64,000 bases of DNA from an uncultured candidate division WWE3 bacterium (GTDB lineage Bacteria; Patescibacteriota; WWE3; UBA101185; UBA10185): NCBI GenBank assembly GCA_903879985.1, contig CAIRNR010000007.1:649925-713924 (forward strand), written 5' to 3'. Position 1 is the stretch's first letter; each line of letters opens with the position of its first letter. Below, piece after piece: positions 2,771 to 23,076 of this stretch. The notes under the pieces were generated by a model. It saw only the letters and a program-made list of their open reading frames with translations. It was not told the DNA's origin and searched no databases. Made by a program: the position numbers and the translations under genes.

Positions 2771-4909
2771 ATGTTATTGTCCGCTGAATTACCAACCGAA
2801 GAATTTACTCCGGAAATACCTTTAGAACAACAGCTATGGCCCGAGGCAATAGAATCCCCCAAAATTAAATTAGATATACCAGAAAATACGGCAACTGATT
2901 TTGCACCCCCTCAAGTAAGTGTTATTTCCGATGAACACATCTCAAATGAGCTAAACATAGACTTAAATATTGATAGGGAATCGTTTTCTCAGGCAAACCA
3001 TGCTTTTCAGAGATTATCCGCAACATATCCATCGGGCATTAAAGTTGGTTTTTCCAACGACTTAGATATTGAGGATATTCCTAAAAGAGACATACGCGAT
3101 TTGGGCGTTATTTTGGATACATGGAACAACGCGAACGAAACTTACTTTTACTTGGACTCTCGTCCTCATCAGTATTTTTACTCGCCAATAAAGGAACAAT
3201 GGGATGACTTAGCAGTTGAGCAGAAAGCACATTTGCGTACAGTTTTAGGTGTTAACTTCGATACACTAGCACAAGATTTCTTTTCTGGTAGTGGAGATGT
3301 ACCCGACGGTATAAGAACCTTACAAGAATTAATTAAAAACCCAGATTTCCAGGAAAAGGAAAACTTAACTAACTATCTGATGCAAGAAGGTTGGTTAGCA
3401 AAAAGAAATTTCTTTAGATCCAACCCAAACGAGGATGAAAACACATATTCGCGGTCACGCTATAGTTACGAATATACAAAATTCGAAATAAATCAACTCT
3501 TATGCTCAGCTGCAGTCGATCTTGCTGAACAAGGAAATAGCGCTCAGTTGGGTACCATATTAGAACATTTTGCTTTCTCAAGAGTACCTTCAGATTCCCG
3601 ATTCAATTTAGGTGATTTTCCAAGTCCTTACGAAGATGCTACAAGCGTATTACTAGACGAAAATCTTTCTTCGGACGGAAGAAGGGTAGTGTTGAAAGAA
3701 TTCGTAAAGGTCTTTGGGCCAATTAGCACTGTTGATACTTTGTCTAACAAGATACATGCTTTAAGTCGTACTGGTAACAATAAAGAAGAATCATATATCA
3801 AAGATTTAATTAACCTTTATTCCTTGATTGAAGGTGAAAATGTTTTAGCACCTATGGAAAAGTTGACTAATGTTTATGACGTTGTTGATTATGCCGCTCT
3901 AGATAGACCTGAACTTACAGCTAAAGAAGCAACAAGATTGGAAGCAGTTGCTAGGTTATTTGCTGAAGGTGCTGAGTACAGTACTGTTGACGGGCATGTA
4001 GTAAAATTTGCTTCCACAGCTCCAGCCAAGGAACAAACAGAAGTAGTAATACTGGACACAGGTGCAGGCAATGCCCGCGTTTCCCGAGAACTTTTTATAC
4101 GTGGCTATAAAAATTGTTCGGCATTAGAATACGACCCAAAAAATATACGTTATGCATTGGAAAAGCGTCCCAGTGAGGATTTTGGGATACTCCGTGGTAG
4201 TTGGCATAACATACCCCTTGCTACGGCTGATTACACAAATATGAATAAAGCTATTGATGTTTGTTTCACTACAGAGAGGTCTTTTTTACATGATCGTACT
4301 GCGGCGGAATGGTTTGGTTTATTTGATGAATTTAGGAGGGTTTCCCATTACAGAGCAATGCTTTATATGGATTTACCCGATATTAATTCCGGTGTTTATA
4401 AAGAACGCGATGATGCTTTTAGAACTAATTTGCGTGAAAATTTAGATATAACCGATAAAGAGAGTCATATTATTTTTGATGGCCCCGGCAAAGTAAAATT
4501 TAATAGGATGGCTATATCAGAAGAGCAATTAGCTATTTATTGTCGACTATTTGGTCTTGTTCAAATTAATAGAGAGGTAGATCCAAGACCTGACGAGGAT
4601 ATGACCGACCTTTATTTCACACTGGCAAAAGATCAAAACTGGCTTTCCGGAGACATCTCCAGAGAGGAGTTATGGAATTCCATGGCAAAGTTAGGTATGT
4701 TCGATTTCGATGTAGATTACAACATGTTTGTGGAATCTTGGGGCATGACAATAGGACAAGCGCTATTGTTTGGTTTGGATACAACAGGTTCTCTCCATAG
4801 TTCTCCATACCTAGAGGATTTGTTCAAAAAGCGAAAAGGTCCAGCGGTTTGGGTTGATAACAAAGGCGGCAGATTGAACTTGAGGTCTGAATGGCCATCT
4901 TATGAATGA
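2771..4909 (+). CDS. large hypothetical protein (712 aa) with an internal class I SAM-dependent methyltransferase-like fold
   Basis: Glycine-rich motif I 'VVILDTGAGNA' lies at about nt 4044-4076. It is followed by an acidic beta2 end ('ALEYD') and 'AIDVCFTTERSFLH' (motif II/III-like). No known family could be assigned to the N- and C-terminal regions. Confidence 0.5.
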   Translation: MLLSAELPTEEFTPEIPLEQQLWPEAIESPKIKLDIPENTATDFAPPQVSVISDEHISNELNIDLNIDRESFSQANHAFQRLSATYPSGIKVGFSNDLDIEDIPKRDIRDLGVILDTWNNANETYFYLDSRPHQYFYSPIKEQWDDLAVEQKAHLRTVLGVNFDTLAQDFFSGSGDVPDGIRTLQELIKNPDFQEKENLTNYLMQEGWLAKRNFFRSNPNEDENTYSRSRYSYEYTKFEINQLLCSAAVDLAEQGNSAQLGTILEHFAFSRVPSDSRFNLGDFPSPYEDATSVLLDENLSSDGRRVVLKEFVKVFGPISTVDTLSNKIHALSRTGNNKEESYIKDLINLYSLIEGENVLAPMEKLTNVYDVVDYAALDRPELTAKEATRLEAVARLFAEGAEYSTVDGHVVKFASTAPAKEQTEVVILDTGAGNARVSRELFIRGYKNCSALEYDPKNIRYALEKRPSEDFGILRGSWHNIPLATADYTNMNKAIDVCFTTERSFLHDRTAAEWFGLFDEFRRVSHYRAMLYMDLPDINSGVYKERDDAFRTNLRENLDITDKESHIIFDGPGKVKFNRMAISEEQLAIYCRLFGLVQINREVDPRPDEDMTDLYFTLAKDQNWLSGDISREELWNSMAKLGMFDFDVDYNMFVESWGMTIGQALLFGLDTTGSLHSSPYLEDLFKKRKGPAVWVDNKGGRLNLRSEWPSYE

Positions 4910-5679
4910 TTGGTTTTAGTATAATCGTCTGCTTTTTCCCAAGCCAAAGTAAACATTGCTCTCATTGTATTGGCAATAAGGTCGTTTTGAACTATAATTC
5001 CCACTAAGTCGCCATCTTTGTGAAAGTTAATGAATGCGACTTTACTGCTATAAATGTCTACTTCAATACCAATAGGGAACTTCTCTTTTGGTACAACTCT
5101 TGTTTCACGCTTTTCCTTTTCATTTTTACTGATATATGTTTTGGTTTTTGCGTCCTCTGCAACGATAACTTTAGCCCAAATGTTAGCCACAGCTCTTTCC
5201 TTTCCATATGTGTGCGAAAGCCATTCATACACCTTTGGATCAACCTCTGATGTTTGTAGAATCGCCCAAATCTCTTTACCCTCTTTAAGAGTGTCGTTGT
5301 AGACCTCTTTAATGCCATTGATTCCTTCATATATCTTCACACCGGGTTTATTATCAGTTGTTTTGAATGCCGTAATTAGCTGGGGTAGGTAAGTCTGCAG
5401 AGTTAGTTGGTGGTTTTGAGCTTCTTTTAACTGTTCCTCTACGAGTTCTGAAAGTTTGTAAGGATGTTCGGCACGGAAGTGAAGCTTCTTTTTAATTTTT
5501 AATTGAGAGGCAAGTCCTTTATTTTGAAGATCATACAGAGTTTTATAAACAATTCCTCTTTTCAATCCAGATTTTTTAATAATATCTAAGACTGGCAAAA
5601 TGCCCTGTTCGAGCAAGATGTCATAAACAATTGCTTCTTTATCTTTTAGCCCTGATTCTTTGAGAGTTTTTGAATACAT
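4900..5679 (-). CDS. TrmB-like winged-helix transcriptional regulator
   Basis: N-terminal wHTH 'EAIVYDILLEQGILPVLDIIKKSGLKRGIVYKTLYDLQNKGL' followed by a ~180 aa C-terminal domain. This resembles TrmB-family regulators. Confidence 0.5.
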   Translation of the reverse strand: MYSKTLKESGLKDKEAIVYDILLEQGILPVLDIIKKSGLKRGIVYKTLYDLQNKGLASQLKIKKKLHFRAEHPYKLSELVEEQLKEAQNHQLTLQTYLPQLITAFKTTDNKPGVKIYEGINGIKEVYNDTLKEGKEIWAILQTSEVDPKVYEWLSHTYGKERAVANIWAKVIVAEDAKTKTYISKNEKEKRETRVVPKEKFPIGIEVDIYSSKVAFINFHKDGDLVGIIVQNDLIANTMRAMFTLAWEKADDYTKTNHS

Positions 5680-5739
5680 AACTAATATAAACGTAGCAAA
5701 GTTCTAATACTGTGTCAACATGTTAATTGTCAAAACAAT

Positions 5740-5768
5740 TTGACGTATCCTGTAACCCGTAGTAATAT
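5740..5768 (+). promoter_or_regulatory. sigma70-like promoter (TTGACG-17-TAATAT)
   Basis: Hexamers read directly, with a 17-nt spacer. It sits upstream of a second, stronger promoter. Confidence 0.35.
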
Positions 5769-5828
5769 GTGTTAAGTAAAAAAAGGGAAATACCCCTGAG
5801 TGCTCGCAGGAAATGTTATCAAAGTGAC

Positions 5829-5857
5829 TTGACAGGACATGAACTATAGGGTACAAT
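5829..5857 (+). promoter_or_regulatory. near-consensus sigma70 promoter (TTGACA-17-TACAAT)
   Basis: TTGACA at 5829-5834, a 17-nt spacer, and TACAAT at 5852-5857. No ORF lies downstream before the terminator at ~6043. Confidence 0.5.
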
Positions 5858-5863
5858 GGTTTT

Positions 5864-6043
5864 AGAAGGTTGAAGCAGAGTACATTCAAAACTAAATATA
5901 GAAACCGTTTATTTAAGGAGAGAACCTAACGTCTCAAGCCTAATAGAATAAATATAGTGCAATTAAAAAGGCCGAGATTTGGTGAGAAGCTATAAAGCGT
6001 AATGCTGTAGCGTATTTTCCTCAGATCTCGGCTTTATTTTTTT
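5864..6043 (+). ncRNA. candidate small non-coding RNA (~180 nt), family unknown
   Basis: Bounded by the consensus promoter at 5829-5857 and an intrinsic terminator (GCCGAGAT ... ATCTCGGC plus a T-run). It has no ORF or RBS and lies in a 730-bp non-coding gap. Confidence 0.3.
5964..6043 (+). terminator. intrinsic terminator with a long loop (possibly a structured RNA 3' domain)
   Basis: An A-run precedes GCCGAGAT (5970-5977). This pairs with ATCTCGGC (6023-6030), followed by TTTATTTTTTT. Confidence 0.45.
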
Positions 6044-6407
6044 CCTCATATTGTTCTTAGCCAGAAACCTACCTGTAAGGTACGGAAATACTGTTAATAC
6101 CCAAATCGGAAGCAATATGCTGTCCAACAAAAAGGGAGAGAGTTTAACAGGGTCTACCGACCATTACAGATAGATTTTTGCCTATGACAAAGTGTGTCAA
6201 GACAATTAGAAGGAGAGTACGTTGAAAATCGAATACTAATTATCAGAATTTTAGATTTTGACAACAGGGGAGTGAAGCATGTTTTGGATTAAGCCTTAGC
6301 GTGTTTTTCTCCCTGAGTTGTGGCTCCGTAGCAGCTTTTAACTTGCAGTTAGTATTTGCGGGTTTGAGGGTTGGTATGGGAAGTAATCAATATAGAAATG
6401 AAACCAA

Positions 6408-6812
6408 ATGAAAAAGGAGAGTGTTATGTTAGTAAAACAGATAAAAACAAGAAATGCCCATGTTGCAAGCGTTCAGACGTGGGGCGGGGGTTTGAGGGAA
6501 AACGACGACGACTGCTATGAAGCAGCTTTTTTCCCGAATTCTATCTCCGCGGTTATCGGGCTGGTTGAAGAGAGGGACACCTGGTTAATTAGTCAATTTA
6601 AGGTTAAACCAGGTGAAATTTTTTACCAAGGAGTGTGGTGTGATGACGATAGGGTCGGGGGTTGTATTTCCGATGATCGTAATGGAAAAAAGCCTTTCAT
6701 GGACCAGGCACCTGCACCAAATAATTATTTTGGTAATTGGGAGTGTGTCATAGCCGGAAACAATAATTCCGACTTTTCACAATTACCACCAGTTTCACAG
6801 TTTTTTTCATAA
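6408..6812 (+). CDS. hypothetical protein A (134 aa), first gene of a higher-GC accessory block
   Basis: RBS AAAGGAGAG precedes the ATG. Cys/Trp-rich and Gly/Asp-rich sequence with no family assigned. Followed by a conserved hairpin. Confidence 0.45.
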   Translation: MKKESVMLVKQIKTRNAHVASVQTWGGGLRENDDDCYEAAFFPNSISAVIGLVEERDTWLISQFKVKPGEIFYQGVWCDDDRVGGCISDDRNGKKPFMDQAPAPNNYFGNWECVIAGNNNSDFSQLPPVSQFFS

Positions 6813-6989
6813 TCTTTATTTAACAAGGAGGTACTTGGAAGCTTAACAGCGCCAATTACCTCCTAAGTTCTTTCATTAATATTGAATTCCCCGATGTTGT
6901 TCTAAGAACATAGAGCTATTACGGGAAATTTAAATGAAAGTTAACCTTGTCCAAGATTAGGGCATTGTATTAAAAAAGGAGAAACATAA
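6813..6989 (+). repeat. repeat module copy 1: terminator-like hairpin plus ~125-bp conserved leader with a palindrome
   Basis: The hairpin AGGAGGTAcTTGG-13nt-CCAAtTACCTCCT lies at 6826-6864. The leader that follows is near-identical to 8396-8566 and contains the TGTTCTaAGAACA inverted repeat plus RBS AAGGAG. Confidence 0.7.
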
Positions 6990-7592
6990 ATGAAAGCAAC
7001 AATAAGTTCTAAATTGTTTGCGGCTTTGGAAGCAACGGTTCGGGAAGTAGAAGTTCCTGTTGCTGATTTGCTTCGTGACCTGAAAGCGTTTACCGTTACT
7101 AAGGTGGCTGGAACAGACGTGGAACAAGCTCTGGTGTATGTCCTGAATCAGGAGGAAGGTTTTACTAATCTTTCGAAGGATTTTGTAGACGCTACCTTTC
7201 TTATGAGCTGGCCTGCGATAAAAGATGGAACAATATTTGTTAAGGATGAATTCGAAATACCTGAATTTGGTCCTGTTGTAAGGCATGTAAGTATTTCCAA
7301 CCTATATATAGGAGGAAAGTTTGATAATGGTCAGGCAAAAGAATTGGCTCAAGCGGTATATACGGTAATCCAATACGCTTGGATACGAAGTCATCCAAGG
7401 GATGATATGCCTCAAATAACTCCAATTTGGGAGCTGAACCTCCGAGGATTTCTCTTTCGAGAAAATGTCGTCCGGGGTGGAAGTGGATCACGCGAAGTCG
7501 CATTTGTGCTGACCGAAGAAATGGCTTTGATAAACGCTGCGGCCGAAGCTTGTAAAAAACTGGACCCTAGGCTCGCGCTTTGGACTTTTTGA
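6990..7592 (+). CDS. hypothetical protein B1 (200 aa), paralog of 8567..9205
   Basis: Shares the motifs 'VLNQEEG', 'WPAI' and 'W-I-R/K-S/T-HPR' with B2 at roughly 35% identity. Its leader is identical to that of B2. Confidence 0.55.
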   Translation: MKATISSKLFAALEATVREVEVPVADLLRDLKAFTVTKVAGTDVEQALVYVLNQEEGFTNLSKDFVDATFLMSWPAIKDGTIFVKDEFEIPEFGPVVRHVSISNLYIGGKFDNGQAKELAQAVYTVIQYAWIRSHPRDDMPQITPIWELNLRGFLFRENVVRGGSGSREVAFVLTEEMALINAAAEACKKLDPRLALWTF

Positions 7593-7663
7593 ACTAATAA
7601 ATTCTAAACTGCTATAAAAACCAAAATATTCTATAAACAAAATGATGTAAGGAGATAAATATA

Positions 7664-8395
7664 ATGTCAGGAAACATTTGGACTCTATTTGATGATGGAC
7701 AGCGGAGGATTGAATTTCAAAGTCTCCCTTTTGGCGCCAAAATAACCGCTTTCAATGATAAACCGGTTTTGGCCGAAGATGTTATTGTTTATGAGATTCC
7801 GTCTCAGGAGGATGGTATTCTTTCTAGGTTGGGAATTGTGATCATGCCCGCAGAGCTTCCAATGCACGCCTACGTAGTAGCGCATGCTTATGAAATGGGC
7901 GTTGTACGTACCTGCCTTTATTGGAATTGGTTCGAAGGTATGGAAGTTATCAAAGGACTTTTTGCATCCATTGGTAAAGAAATGTCTATACTACCTGTTA
8001 CTCCAATGTCCTTGCCCGATCCTAATAAGGAATTGCCACTTAGCTATGTGACAACGTTGGGAGAAGGTATTACCAAGAAGGATACGGTATCATCCGCGGA
8101 TGCCTTTTGGTGGAGGACGCCTTCTTACCCATCTTCCGTGTGGAGCTTGAAAACTTTCGAGCTGCTGGGTTTAACTGGTACTGACCAAGAAATTATGGCT
8201 ACCCTAGAGCCGCACGACGGTGGTTGGAACTCACCTTTAGGTCAATTTGTTTCAGTAGTGGGGGACCTGTTATATGATTTTGAGCACGGTCACCTAAATG
8301 GCTATTGCACGTTGCACCTTGATTTACAGCAGCCGCTTCTTATTGAAGAATGCCGTCTCTTGATTAAGGAACTGCGAGAAGAGCTATATAAATAA
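7664..8395 (+). CDS. hypothetical protein C (243 aa)
   Basis: RBS AAGGAGA precedes the ATG. Starts 71 nt after B1 with no intervening hairpin, so it is likely co-transcribed. No family assigned. Confidence 0.5.
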   Translation: MSGNIWTLFDDGQRRIEFQSLPFGAKITAFNDKPVLAEDVIVYEIPSQEDGILSRLGIVIMPAELPMHAYVVAHAYEMGVVRTCLYWNWFEGMEVIKGLFASIGKEMSILPVTPMSLPDPNKELPLSYVTTLGEGITKKDTVSSADAFWWRTPSYPSSVWSLKTFELLGLTGTDQEIMATLEPHDGGWNSPLGQFVSVVGDLLYDFEHGHLNGYCTLHLDLQQPLLIEECRLLIKELREELYK

Positions 8396-8566
8396 TTTTT
8401 ATCTAACAGGGAGGTACTTGGAAGCTTAACAGCACCAATTACCTCCTTAGTTCTTTAATATTGAATTCCCCGATGTTGTTCTAAGAACATAGAGCTATTA
8501 CGGGAAATTTAAATGAAAGTTAACCTTGTCCAAGATTAGGGCATTGTATTAAAAAGGAGAGGAATT
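8396..8566 (+). repeat. repeat module copy 2 (hairpin plus conserved leader)
   Basis: Hairpin at 8409-8447. The leader is near-identical to copy 1 over about 120 nt, including the TGTTCTaAGAACA palindrome. Confidence 0.7.
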
Positions 8567-9205
8567 ATGTCAGGATTAATTAGCAAGGGATTAAAAAAGG
8601 CGCTTAAGGAAACGCGGATTGAGTATAAAGTTCCTATCAGAGACCTAATGCATAACCCGAAAGGATTTACAGTAAACACAATGCCTTACGATGGTGAAGC
8701 CATGGCATATTGCGATGTATTGGTATTAAACCAGGAAGAAGGACTAGCTGCTTTTCCCATTGACTCCGAATTTAAGCGAGGCTTTCCGGGCGCTGATGTA
8801 CTTTTTGATTTCTTTATGAATTGGCCGGCAATCGTGGCCACAAAGGAAATCGTTGTGGTTGATTCGTTTATCGCAACAGATGACGATATTATTAGGCGGA
8901 ATATCTTCTTTTCGTCTCCATACATAGAGTCGTGGTATGACGGATGTGAACAAGAACCGGAGTATGTGCGTCCCCGAGAAATAGTCAAAGAAGTTAATGC
9001 CTTCATACGCAATACTTGGATAAAGACGCATCCTCGCAAAACTCCTAATGTTATGCCCATATACGACAGGCAAACCATTATGGCGTTGATTTCCAACGAT
9101 ATTATTGAAGGTGAATATTATTCGAGACGTACTGCGTTAGTTCTGCTAAAAGAGTTTCAGGTGATTAAGAGGCTAATTAATACACTCGATCAATTGAAAT
9201 CCTAA
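8567..9205 (+). CDS. hypothetical protein B2 (212 aa), paralog of 6990..7592
   Basis: Carries the same conserved motifs as B1, with the duplicated leader upstream. Confidence 0.55.
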   Translation: MSGLISKGLKKALKETRIEYKVPIRDLMHNPKGFTVNTMPYDGEAMAYCDVLVLNQEEGLAAFPIDSEFKRGFPGADVLFDFFMNWPAIVATKEIVVVDSFIATDDDIIRRNIFFSSPYIESWYDGCEQEPEYVRPREIVKEVNAFIRNTWIKTHPRKTPNVMPIYDRQTIMALISNDIIEGEYYSRRTALVLLKEFQVIKRLINTLDQLKS

Positions 9206-9265
9206 TATAGCAATAGGGAGGTACCTGGAAGCTTTACAGCACCAAATACCTCCTTAGTTCTAACT
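9206..9265 (+). repeat. repeat module copy 3 (hairpin only, degenerate)
   Basis: GGGAGGTAcctggaagctttacagcaccaaaTACCTCCT at 9216-9254. No leader element follows. Confidence 0.55.
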
Positions 9266-9301
9266 ATATGTAGTGCTAGTGCTCAACCATTTTGAGCGCA
9301 G

Positions 9302-9376
9302 AAAAGCCCGAATATTTGTGTGTTAATCGGAAGGTAGGACCGATTAACTTAAACACAACATGTCCGGGCTTTTTTG
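9302..9376 (+). terminator. rho-independent terminator closing the accessory block
   Basis: A long imperfect hairpin AAAAGCCCGaatatttgtgtgtt...aacacaacatgtCCGGGC is followed by TTTTTTGTTTT. Confidence 0.55.
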
Positions 9377-9433
9377 TTTTCACGGCTATTATTAGATATA
9401 GCGGCCGACCAGCTTTGCTGGTAAAATCACCCC

Positions 9434-22989: not shown

Positions 22990-23076
22990 GCCGTGGTGGC
23001 GGAATGGTATACGCGGTGGTCTCAAAAACCACTGGGATCTAATCCCGTGTGAGTTCGACTCTCACTCACGGCACCA
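22990..23076 (+). tRNA. tRNA-Leu (anticodon CAA), class II with long variable arm, CCA encoded
   Basis: Acceptor stem GCCGTGG/TCACGGC. Anticodon stem GTGGT/ACCAC with loop CT-CAA-AA. T-arm GTGAG-TTCGACT-CTCAC. Ends ACCA. Confidence 0.8.

Follow-up and report, generated by a model that had tools for sequence, protein, structure and literature searches.

The stretch of DNA analysed here, 64,000 nucleotides (nt) at its full length and called the window below, comes from an uncultured candidate division WWE3 bacterium of the Candidate Phyla Radiation (CPR). The region of interest lies between a TrmB-like regulator gene on the reverse strand and four accessory genes on the forward strand. A sequence-only reading had proposed that this region encodes a small RNA (sRNA) of about 180 nt, driven by a near-consensus promoter and closed by an intrinsic terminator. 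Sequence comparison indicates that the segment 5829-6043 is a genuine conserved non-coding unit of WWE3 bacteria, from promoter to terminator. The RNA element is an undescribed family whose component parts (a sigma-70 promoter, an intrinsic terminator and motif-bearing hairpins) are of known kinds. Literature searches for a described CPR RNA of such a kind returned nothing relevant. The relatives used for comparison are loci around homologues of the TrmB-like protein, collected from metagenomes and GTDB species genomes and, in a few cases, by exact protein look-up; single loci are cited by their L numbers.

The promoter-to-terminator unit

Two tandem promoters stand at the head of the unit, both as the sequence-only reading had described them (Table 1). 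P2, the main one, has sigma-70 hexamers of the TTGACA/TATAAT type at a spacing within 17 +/- 1 bp and at a fixed position. Neither strand of the window has another TTGACA-N17-TAYAAT site, and the number expected from shuffles is 0.05. Its position is conserved in all relatives; it is a 12/12 match in the three that were scanned (L098, L099 and L013), reads TTGACA-17-TATAAT in most others, and has one-base variants of the -10 hexamer in L022 and L095. P1 is conserved in the relatives as TTGACA-17-TAnTAT, a 10-11/12 match. Both -35 hexamers lie within inverted repeats of the form T[GA]TCAA-N6-7-TTGACA. At P1 the upstream half is TTGTCAA (5727-5733), and at P2 the sequence TATCAA (5817-5822) ahead of the -35 hexamer completes a pseudo-palindrome. 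Promoter-like sites in the 3-kb neighbourhood are not above chance (11 versus 7.3 +/- 2.9 expected), so the weight rests on the uniqueness of P2 in the window and on its conservation in the relatives.

Downstream of P2, the predicted transcript has near its start a 5' motif that is near-invariant in the relatives as GAGAG[GT]AC[AT]TTnAAAACTAnATAG; GAGAACCTACCA follows, and then a small hairpin. The loop of this hairpin reads AACCTACCA in the relatives, and its stem, as read from the sequences, varies by lineage between GAG/CUC, AGA/UCU, AAGA/UCUU and AGAUA/UAUCU. The unit closes with the hairpin and T-run that had been predicted, a stable hairpin followed by a U-run on the transcribed strand (tail UUUAUUUUUUU). 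The folding energy of this terminator is -32.7 kcal/mol as opposed to a mean of -15.5 for dinucleotide shuffles (z = -6.3), and none of the shuffles was as stable. In the relatives its stem reads GGCCGAGATTTGGTGAGAA ... TTCTCTCCAGGTCTTGGCC, followed by T6. The terminator is unidirectional, as the upstream A-run is not conserved. A 26-nt apical insertion in the hairpin is specific to this strain, and a simple scanner missed the terminator because its loop limit is 8 nt. Three independent short assemblies from metagenome contigs of the same strain (L010, L011 and L012) start at window position 6000 or 6026, inside the terminator hairpin; the inverted repeat there probably broke the assembly.

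Table 1. Positions of the non-coding locus and of the neighbouring features in the window
Feature	Position	Strand	Remarks
P2, main promoter	5829..5857	+	TTGACA-17-TACAAT; 11/12 consensus
P1, upstream tandem promoter	5740..5768	+	TTGACG-17-TAATAT; 9/12 consensus
Predicted ~180-nt non-coding RNA, terminated form	5864..6043	+	start inferred from the -10 hexamer; covariance model R1 110.7 bits, E 1.8e-18
Conserved 5' motif GCAGAGTACATTCAAAACTAAATATAGAA	5875..5903	+	near-invariant columns in alignments A3 and A6; core 5880-5892 boxA-like (GTACATTCAAAAC)
Small hairpin	5920..5935	+	GAGA / loop ACCTAACG / TCTC; loop holds the CCUACC motif with a C-to-A change here
Rho-independent terminator	5970..6043	+	long hairpin 5970-6032, then T-run TTTATTTTTTT at 6033-6043
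Conserved post-terminator block	6060..6190	+	aligns with L013, L092, L095, L172, L027 and L097
Second copy of the 5' motif, GAAGGAGAGTACGTTGAAAATCGAATA	6209..6235	+	direct repeat of 5872-5898, 78% identity; boxA-like core 6217-6229
TrmBL2-like regulator gene	4900-5679	-	259 aa, divergent from the RNA; N-terminal TrmB-type winged helix (Pfam TrmB)
Putative promoter of the TrmBL2-like gene	5690..5718	-	-35 TTGACA 5718-5713; weak -10 TACGTT 5695-5690; back-to-back with P1
Four hypothetical accessory genes	6426..9205	+	128, 200, 243 and 212 aa; co-oriented with the RNA; no Pfam or NCBIfam match
Strong terminator between the accessory block and ychF	9305..9378	+	-37.8 kcal/mol, z -7.1; 9-nt apical loop AAGGUAGGA

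Relatives whose regulator protein is 52-94% identical share the same layout on the divergent side: both promoters, the 5' motif, the hairpin and the terminator. A covariance model (R1) built from 13 sequences with this layout recovered 17 distinct loci, the window among them, each with a single strong match (E values from 1e-6 to 3e-24). The compensatory changes that the sequence-only reading had asked for are found in this set. On the R1 alignment of the 17 sequences the terminator stem is 95.2% paired, and 12 of its 21 pairs have changed on both sides. None of 500 shuffles reached any of five measures of this covariation, and with the 3' partner slid out of register pairing fell to no more than 64%. 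All 17 loci that bear the module have kept the hairpin with its U-run. In L095, an inserted gene separates the promoter-plus-RNA unit from the regulator gene; the unit is kept there with its own promoter, which argues that it is autonomous.

These results bear on the simplest alternative, namely that promoter-like and hairpin sequences stand together by chance in AT-rich intergenic DNA, or that the region is regulatory DNA for the divergent TrmB-like gene only. The chance-level count of local promoter-like sites agrees with this explanation, and the inverted repeats at the -35 hexamers could simply be operator or divergent-promoter DNA. However, conservation is strand-specific in 17 lineages and is accompanied by covariation in a transcribed hairpin, P2 is unique in the window, and L095 keeps the unit with its promoter away from the regulator gene. 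This explanation is essentially refuted. A genome-wide repeat or mobile-element RNA was also considered and rejected: the motifs occur nowhere else in the window, there is one copy per locus, and two diagnostic patterns had no matches among the viral contigs of IMG/VR.

The element belongs to no family recognised by Rfam; the sequence-only reading had seen no RNase P, tmRNA, SRP or 6S hallmarks by eye. At gathering thresholds, Rfam 15 matched only a tRNA-Leu (22990-23073) in the whole window and nothing at the RNA. Over 5500-6600 at E<=10 it gave just eukaryotic snoRNA and miRNA noise, far below gathering scores. There were no matches on 23 related loci, and the RNA region of L018 gave only noise at E<=5. 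A 6S RNA was rejected as well, since the folds show an unstructured 5' 100 nt and an independent 3' hairpin with no end-to-end pairing.

The order of promoter, untranslated leader, terminator and then genes is also the classical layout of a metabolite- or tRNA-sensing riboswitch or attenuator of the next gene. A complementarity of 4-6 bp between an ACCAA loop and the UUGGU of the terminator 5' arm could be read in the same way. However, this pairing shifts register and is uncompensated in L173, L095 and L172. No Rfam riboswitch or T-box matches even at E<=10, and no conserved multi-helix aptamer lies upstream of the terminator. The downstream genes differ in every relative, the nearest being ~380 nt beyond the terminator. 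A sensing leader of this type is thus very improbable.

The non-coding locus beyond the terminator

On comparison, the ~180-nt sRNA is not a self-contained gene. Behind the terminator there is more non-coding sequence that is conserved and covaries, and the scanned loci have no second promoter there that is strong or conserved. This sequence reaches ~6235 in the window and extends a further 0.6-1.8 kb past the terminator in the relatives. In the relatives, 1.0-2.0 kb separate the regulator gene from the next protein gene, and conserved blocks are spread over all of this gap. Besides P1 and P2, the RNA strand has no promoter match above 9/12 in L098 and L099 and none at all in L013. The downstream modules would therefore be reached mainly by terminator read-through.

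The locus does not appear to encode protein, in line with the earlier claim that the transcript has no ORF. In L018, L098 and L099, more than 1 kb of the gap is free of ORFs of at least 50 aa on either strand, and in L171-L173 gene callers leave 1.3-2.0 kb empty. Comparison of 218 small ORFs across lineages found only short fragments, on both strands, and none was conserved as a reading frame. The locus therefore appears to be conserved at the level of RNA or DNA. The best small-ORF candidate, of 40 aa at 6051-6173, was rejected because stop codons interrupt it in L018 and L098. A mini-ORF encoding MKIEY (6222-6239) was rejected as a leader peptide because its reading frame is not conserved. 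A Shine-Dalgarno-like AAGGAGAG within the transcript (5915-5922) has no start codon behind it.

The window holds a short version of the locus, composed of the sRNA module, the 6060-6190 block and the second copy of the 5' motif, without the ~500-nt middle; L095 has the same short form. The post-terminator block holds an intact CCTACC (6068-6073) in the hairpin TACC-TGTAA-GGTA (6070-6082), followed by GCTGTCC, GGGAGAGAG and then GGTCTACCGACC...CAGATAGA. As read from the sequences, the stem of this hairpin is exchanged between lineages (UACC/GGUA versus UGCC/GGCA). Homologous 3' copies of the 5' motif in the relatives read GAGAGTACTTTGAAAAT. In addition, a long-range helix of 17 bp can be formed around a hairpin with a CCUACC loop; it is 93.5% paired with five pairs changed on both sides, and a local alternative is equally supported. 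The entire stem of the H-block hairpin is replaced between lineages, with double changes in 8 of 15 pairs. In block D, GGG/CCC is exchanged with GAG/CUC and AGG/CCU. A likeness of block D to loop E or 5S rRNA, noticed only by eye, was dropped, as its support was inconsistent.

Taken as a whole, these features could describe a single large structured RNA similar in scale to OLE, GOLLD or ROOL, with a total length of ~0.4 kb here and 1-2 kb in the relatives, in which the 180-nt unit is only the first domain and the 'terminator' is mainly a structural or processing hairpin. The long ORF-free gaps with conserved blocks throughout, the covarying 17-bp helix together with the H-block hairpin and the exchanges in block D, and the lack of a strong or conserved internal promoter in the three scanned loci (a few 9/12 matches occur in L098 and L099) all agree with such a molecule. 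In contrast, a textbook terminator of hairpin and U-run is conserved in all 17 module-bearing loci, and the long-range helix has its equally supported local alternative. Modules also come and go independently: the ~500-nt middle is missing from the window and L095, the 5' module is missing from L171 and L015, and L096 has the 5' module only. This weakens the case for a single obligate fold, for which such independent gain and loss would be unusual. A single large RNA is accordingly improbable, though less so than a riboswitch.

The loop motif CCU[AG]CC recurs along the locus. Across 13 loci, there are 72 copies on the RNA strand and 6 on the opposite strand, as compared with 2.1 expected from base composition. 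In sliding-window minimum free energy folds the motif is unpaired more often than background (0.58 versus 0.43). It often sits in loops with covarying stems, such as ACAAA-CCUACC-UUUGU and ACGAAG-ACCUACC-CUUCGU. Within the window, the loop motifs occur at the RNA locus only. Resemblances of the loop motif to the tRNA 3' end (CCU-R-CCA), to 16S helix 45 and to the 11-nt tetraloop receptor were seen by eye only and were discarded for want of consistent support.

A related arrangement is found in Microgenomates-type relatives. L100 (OZ246401.1), L103 and L105 carry tandem promoters and ~600 nt of conserved non-coding sequence beside a TrmB-like gene, with 4-5 strand-specific copies of CCCUGUC. 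A canonical end terminator was matched in L100 and L103, and not in L105. This region may be a sister RNA family. Some Microgenomates-type genomes are wrongly labelled Gammaproteobacteria in their records.

The boxA-like motif and the accessory hotspot

The 5' motif resembles boxA, the NusB/NusE antitermination site of ribosomal RNA operons. In the relatives it reads GUACUUU[UG]AAAA[CU], which matches the CPR rRNA boxA at 9 of 12 positions and always has A rather than U at position 3. The two copies in the window are degenerate, with two (5880-5892) and one (6217-6229) further mismatches, and the boxA-like pattern at <=2 mismatches occurs in the window at chance frequency (35 versus 35.6 expected). 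In a B. subtilis rRNA operon, GTGTTCTTTGAAAACTAGATAACAG lies in the spacer that separates the 16S from the 23S gene; the element of this spacer, compared here as GUUCUUUGAAAA, is established as boxA. The WWE3 motif in the best relatives (GTACTTTTAAAACTACATAG) has 16 of 20 bases in common with the B. subtilis region. The gamma-proteobacterial boxA consensus is GYTCTTTAANA (PMC5725501). The 23S leader of a distant CPR genome, L142, carries GCTCTTTGACAA (compared as GCUCUUUGACAA). In that genome (L142 3760-4094), the 23S gene has a promoter-like site of its own with the classical boxA ~130 nt upstream, which suggests that it is transcribed apart from 16S. Together, the tandem strong promoters and the boxA-like motif give the WWE3 locus an rRNA-operon-like look that would fit a long untranslated transcript. 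A degenerate rRNA operon was rejected as an origin, as there is no rRNA similarity in or near any RNA-bearing locus, and rRNA pieces were found only in two unrelated distant loci.

On the other side of the promoters lies the divergent regulator gene. The closest solved structure to its protein is TrmBL2 (PDB match), and homologues of the protein assign the window to candidate division WWE3. The protein and the 746-bp intergenic region have identical copies in many freshwater-lake metagenome assemblies. At the position of its putative promoter, the relatives have TTGACA-17-TAACAT or TATTAT on the strand of the regulator gene. The start of the gene (5680-5718 on the reverse strand) is without a Shine-Dalgarno sequence, and the putative -10 ends ~10 nt before the ATG, in the relatives as here; with the -10 so near, the TrmBL2-like mRNA would be nearly leaderless. 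A 712-aa ORF (2771-4909 on the forward strand) is convergent with the regulator gene, and the 3' ends of the two overlap by 10 nt. This convergent pairing is kept in the relatives, where the partner has 575-717 aa and is methyltransferase-like in some.

Downstream of the RNA, the nearest plausible gene start on the forward strand is the ATG at 6426, behind another AAGGAGAG and ~560 nt downstream, in good agreement with the 550 nt given by the sequence-only reading. The accessory block that starts there is followed by ychF, rpsF, ssb and rpsR. In every relative, the first protein genes past the RNA are unrelated, while the RNA is conserved. The RNA is therefore not the leader of any one conserved gene, and this pattern points to selection on the RNA itself. 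The suggestion that the RNA might be linked to the accessory block thus holds for its position just upstream, and not for a functional link. In the relatives, a weak Csx3 match, AbiEii and MazE/PIN are found in the corresponding variable region (L175 6176-7510, L176 3496-4236 and L173 1-526), and in L175 the conserved gene order returns with ychF-rpsF-ssb-rpsR, as in the window. As judged from these gene orders, the RNA forms one border of a hypervariable stretch of accessory genes that lies between the TrmB-like gene and ychF-rpsF-ssb-rpsR. The four unannotated genes of the window occupy the same hotspot as the defence and toxin-antitoxin-type genes of the relatives.

The accessory block contains repeats of its own. 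An element of ~68 nt is present three times (6809-6876, 8392-8459 and 9199-9266), 71-91% identical and each time directly after a stop codon. It contains the hairpin GGAGGTAC...GCTT.ACAGC.CCAA.TACCTCC and could be a terminator-like or a REP-like (repetitive extragenic palindromic) intergenic element. A direct repeat of 105 nt, 99% identical, lies at 6872-6976 and 8451-8555, upstream of the paralogues 6990-7592 and 8567-9205. The proteins of these paralogues are only 30% identical, and near-identical upstream DNA beside such diverged genes suggests a recent conversion or a shared regulatory cassette. The loop of the terminator that closes the block holds the exact complement of CCUACC (GGUAGG). 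It has no equivalent in the relatives and may be a coincidence.

The position of the locus raises the alternative that it acts in cis, as a leader or gate. The promoters would then serve the co-oriented genes downstream (the accessory block and, in some relatives, ychF-rpsF-ssb-rpsR), and the ~180-nt RNA would be an attenuator by-product. This is the main rival of the reading favoured below and is less probable than that reading. In such a gate, the boxA-like sequence and the hairpin would recruit Nus-type or other factors, so that RNA polymerase passes the terminator and resists Rho over the long untranslated stretch, in the manner of rRNA leaders or of the ops/JUMPStart and EAR/LoaP leaders of variable gene clusters. 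No forward-strand promoter match of at least 10/12 exists between 6040 and 9500, L013 has none downstream, and all genes are co-oriented down to the strong terminator at 9305-9378. The tandem promoters with a boxA-like motif resemble rRNA operons, as the CPR 23S leader with its boxA illustrates, and a second boxA-like copy stands just before the genes. In L025 and L031 the promoter and 5' motif, and in L096 the sRNA module, lie directly or almost directly upstream of genes, and the cargo behind the conserved leader is variable. However, the boxA match is imperfect, with its degenerate window copies and chance frequency. A gate does not account for hairpins that covary over several hundred to ~1,800 nt and carry a recurrent loop motif. 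Two of the three Microgenomates-type loci have a strong terminator that ends the RNA ahead of the first gene, and L171 and the L015 type are without the terminator, yet they keep the rest. Furthermore, Nus complexes are known mainly for countering Rho, not intrinsic terminators.

A proposed trans-acting RNA and its comparison with known systems

The reading we favour, at a probability of roughly 45%, is a trans-acting modular RNA that would present the repeated loop motif to a partner, with read-through setting the number of modules. According to this proposal, P1 and P2, back-to-back with the promoter of the TrmBL2-like gene, would give rise to an untranslated RNA with its 5' end near 5864. 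The boxA-like sequence and the small hairpin, which displays AACCUACCA in the relatives, would lie within the leading ~180 nt, up to the strong intrinsic terminator. Most transcripts would stop there to give an abundant ~180-nt RNA. Read-through transcripts would add further RNA modules, to ~6235 here and much further in the relatives, and the number of modules differs between lineages. In trans, the RNA may serve as a modular scaffold or titrator that offers CCU[AG]CC on hairpins to a protein or RNA partner. It is probably controlled by the divergent regulator, like the RNAs of classical regulator/sRNA gene pairs. The comparisons show the sequence signals with their conservation and covariation, the enrichment of the motif, the lack of coding potential and the variability of the genes downstream; transcription itself, the ratio of termination to read-through, control by the regulator and titration in trans are what we infer from sequence. 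The proposal follows the logic of sponge RNAs and of divergent regulator/sRNA pairs. It draws on the uniqueness of P2, the single-copy module with its covarying terminator, the lack of a conserved ORF and of an Rfam family, the unrelated downstream genes, the displaced unit of L095, the strand-specific loop motif on covarying hairpins, the varying number of modules and the similar layout in Microgenomates-type relatives.

Several observations weigh against this proposal. The first 100 nt show no consensus structure beyond a hairpin of 3-5 bp that presents AACCUACCA in the relatives. L171 has no terminator module, and neither has the GW2011_GWB1_41_6 type (L015, L021, L023 and L091); there, P1 and P2 with the 5' motif run straight into the downstream modules. 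In this strain, the hairpin copy in the sRNA is mutated to CCUAAC, which leaves one intact CCUACC in the locus, and a search for a partner through the complement GGYAGG found no enrichment in the window. Two observations favour a role in cis instead: L025 and L031 have the promoter and 5' motif directly before a gene, and the co-oriented accessory genes have no promoter of their own at 10/12 or better, so read-through from P1 and P2 may contribute to their expression. A trans-acting RNA and a cis-acting gate are not mutually exclusive.

CPR bacteria (Patescibacteria) comprise a large share of bacterial diversity and are almost entirely uncultivated, and to our knowledge very few regulatory RNAs have been described for them. 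What has been gained is an RNA module that a covariance model defines in 17 lineages. It stands at the head of a much larger structured non-coding locus in which a loop motif is repeated. Several traits set the wider locus apart: its length, the rRNA-like expression signals, the density of a strand-specific motif and a place at an accessory hotspot of CPR genomes. If the locus is transcribed as predicted, it would open a way to study how reduced genomes control gene expression after transcription or during elongation. It would then also be a candidate new class of large non-coding RNA and a conserved marker of the hypervariable accessory hotspot. Should it prove to be only a strong promoter with an attenuator, the annotation would remain useful, though of modest interest. 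More tentatively, the locus may represent a new class of large (0.4-2 kb), modular, highly expressed CPR non-coding RNAs, characterised by rRNA-operon-like signals, a TrmBL2-like regulator, hairpins with a pyrimidine-rich motif that is specific to the lineage (CCURCC in WWE3, CCCUGUC in the analogous Microgenomates-type form) and a place at the edge of a hotspot of accessory and defence genes. Such RNAs would titrate or scaffold an abundant cellular factor, possibly controlling transcription into the hotspot.

Among known systems, the leaders of rRNA operons share with this locus the tandem strong promoters ~90 bp apart, the long untranslated transcript and the boxA-like sequence, which here stands 15-30 nt into the transcript and again near its 3' part. 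Unlike those leaders, the locus has no rRNA gene: Rfam found none in the window or in 23 related loci, and blastn found none in the RNA-bearing loci. Its motif departs from boxA consistently at position 3 and often at position 5, and an intrinsic terminator lies inside the leader. The JUMPStart/ops-RfaH, EAR and LoaP leaders are similar in that a conserved non-coding 5' region precedes accessory genes that are unrelated in each lineage; here, the region is framed by the conserved TrmB-like gene and ychF-rpsF-ssb-rpsR. The element described here differs in being much longer and richer in hairpins, with no ops or EAR match in Rfam.

The sponge RNAs CsrB/CsrC, RsmX/Y/Z and CrcZ also combine a strong promoter with many strand-specific copies of a short motif, preferentially in hairpin loops, and their motif copies and modules likewise vary in number between lineages. 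The motif here is CCU[AG]CC, or CCCUGUC in the Microgenomates type, rather than GGA or a CA-rich sequence. This window has one intact copy, and the locus in the relatives is far longer than the known sponges. The repeated loop motif thus does not place the locus in the CsrB/Rsm type, which is defined by GGA/ANGGA loop motifs that bind CsrA/RsmA, and the architecture is analogous only. Large structured RNAs such as OLE, GOLLD, ROOL and HEARO differ from this locus in that its modules are gained and lost independently and a conserved terminator splits it, and none of their Rfam models matches. They are comparable to the 1-2 kb of ORF-free sequence in the relatives, conserved in blocks and with covarying local and long-range helices.

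The oxyR-oxyS, gcvA-gcvB and sgrR-sgrS pairs come close in layout. Here as in those pairs, a short non-coding RNA with a strong promoter and an intrinsic terminator is divergent from the gene of a DNA-binding regulator, and the promoters are back-to-back with inverted repeats that overlap the -35 hexamers. The regulator in WWE3 is TrmB/TrmBL2-like instead of LysR-type, its control of the RNA is putative, and the RNA continues into conserved non-coding modules.

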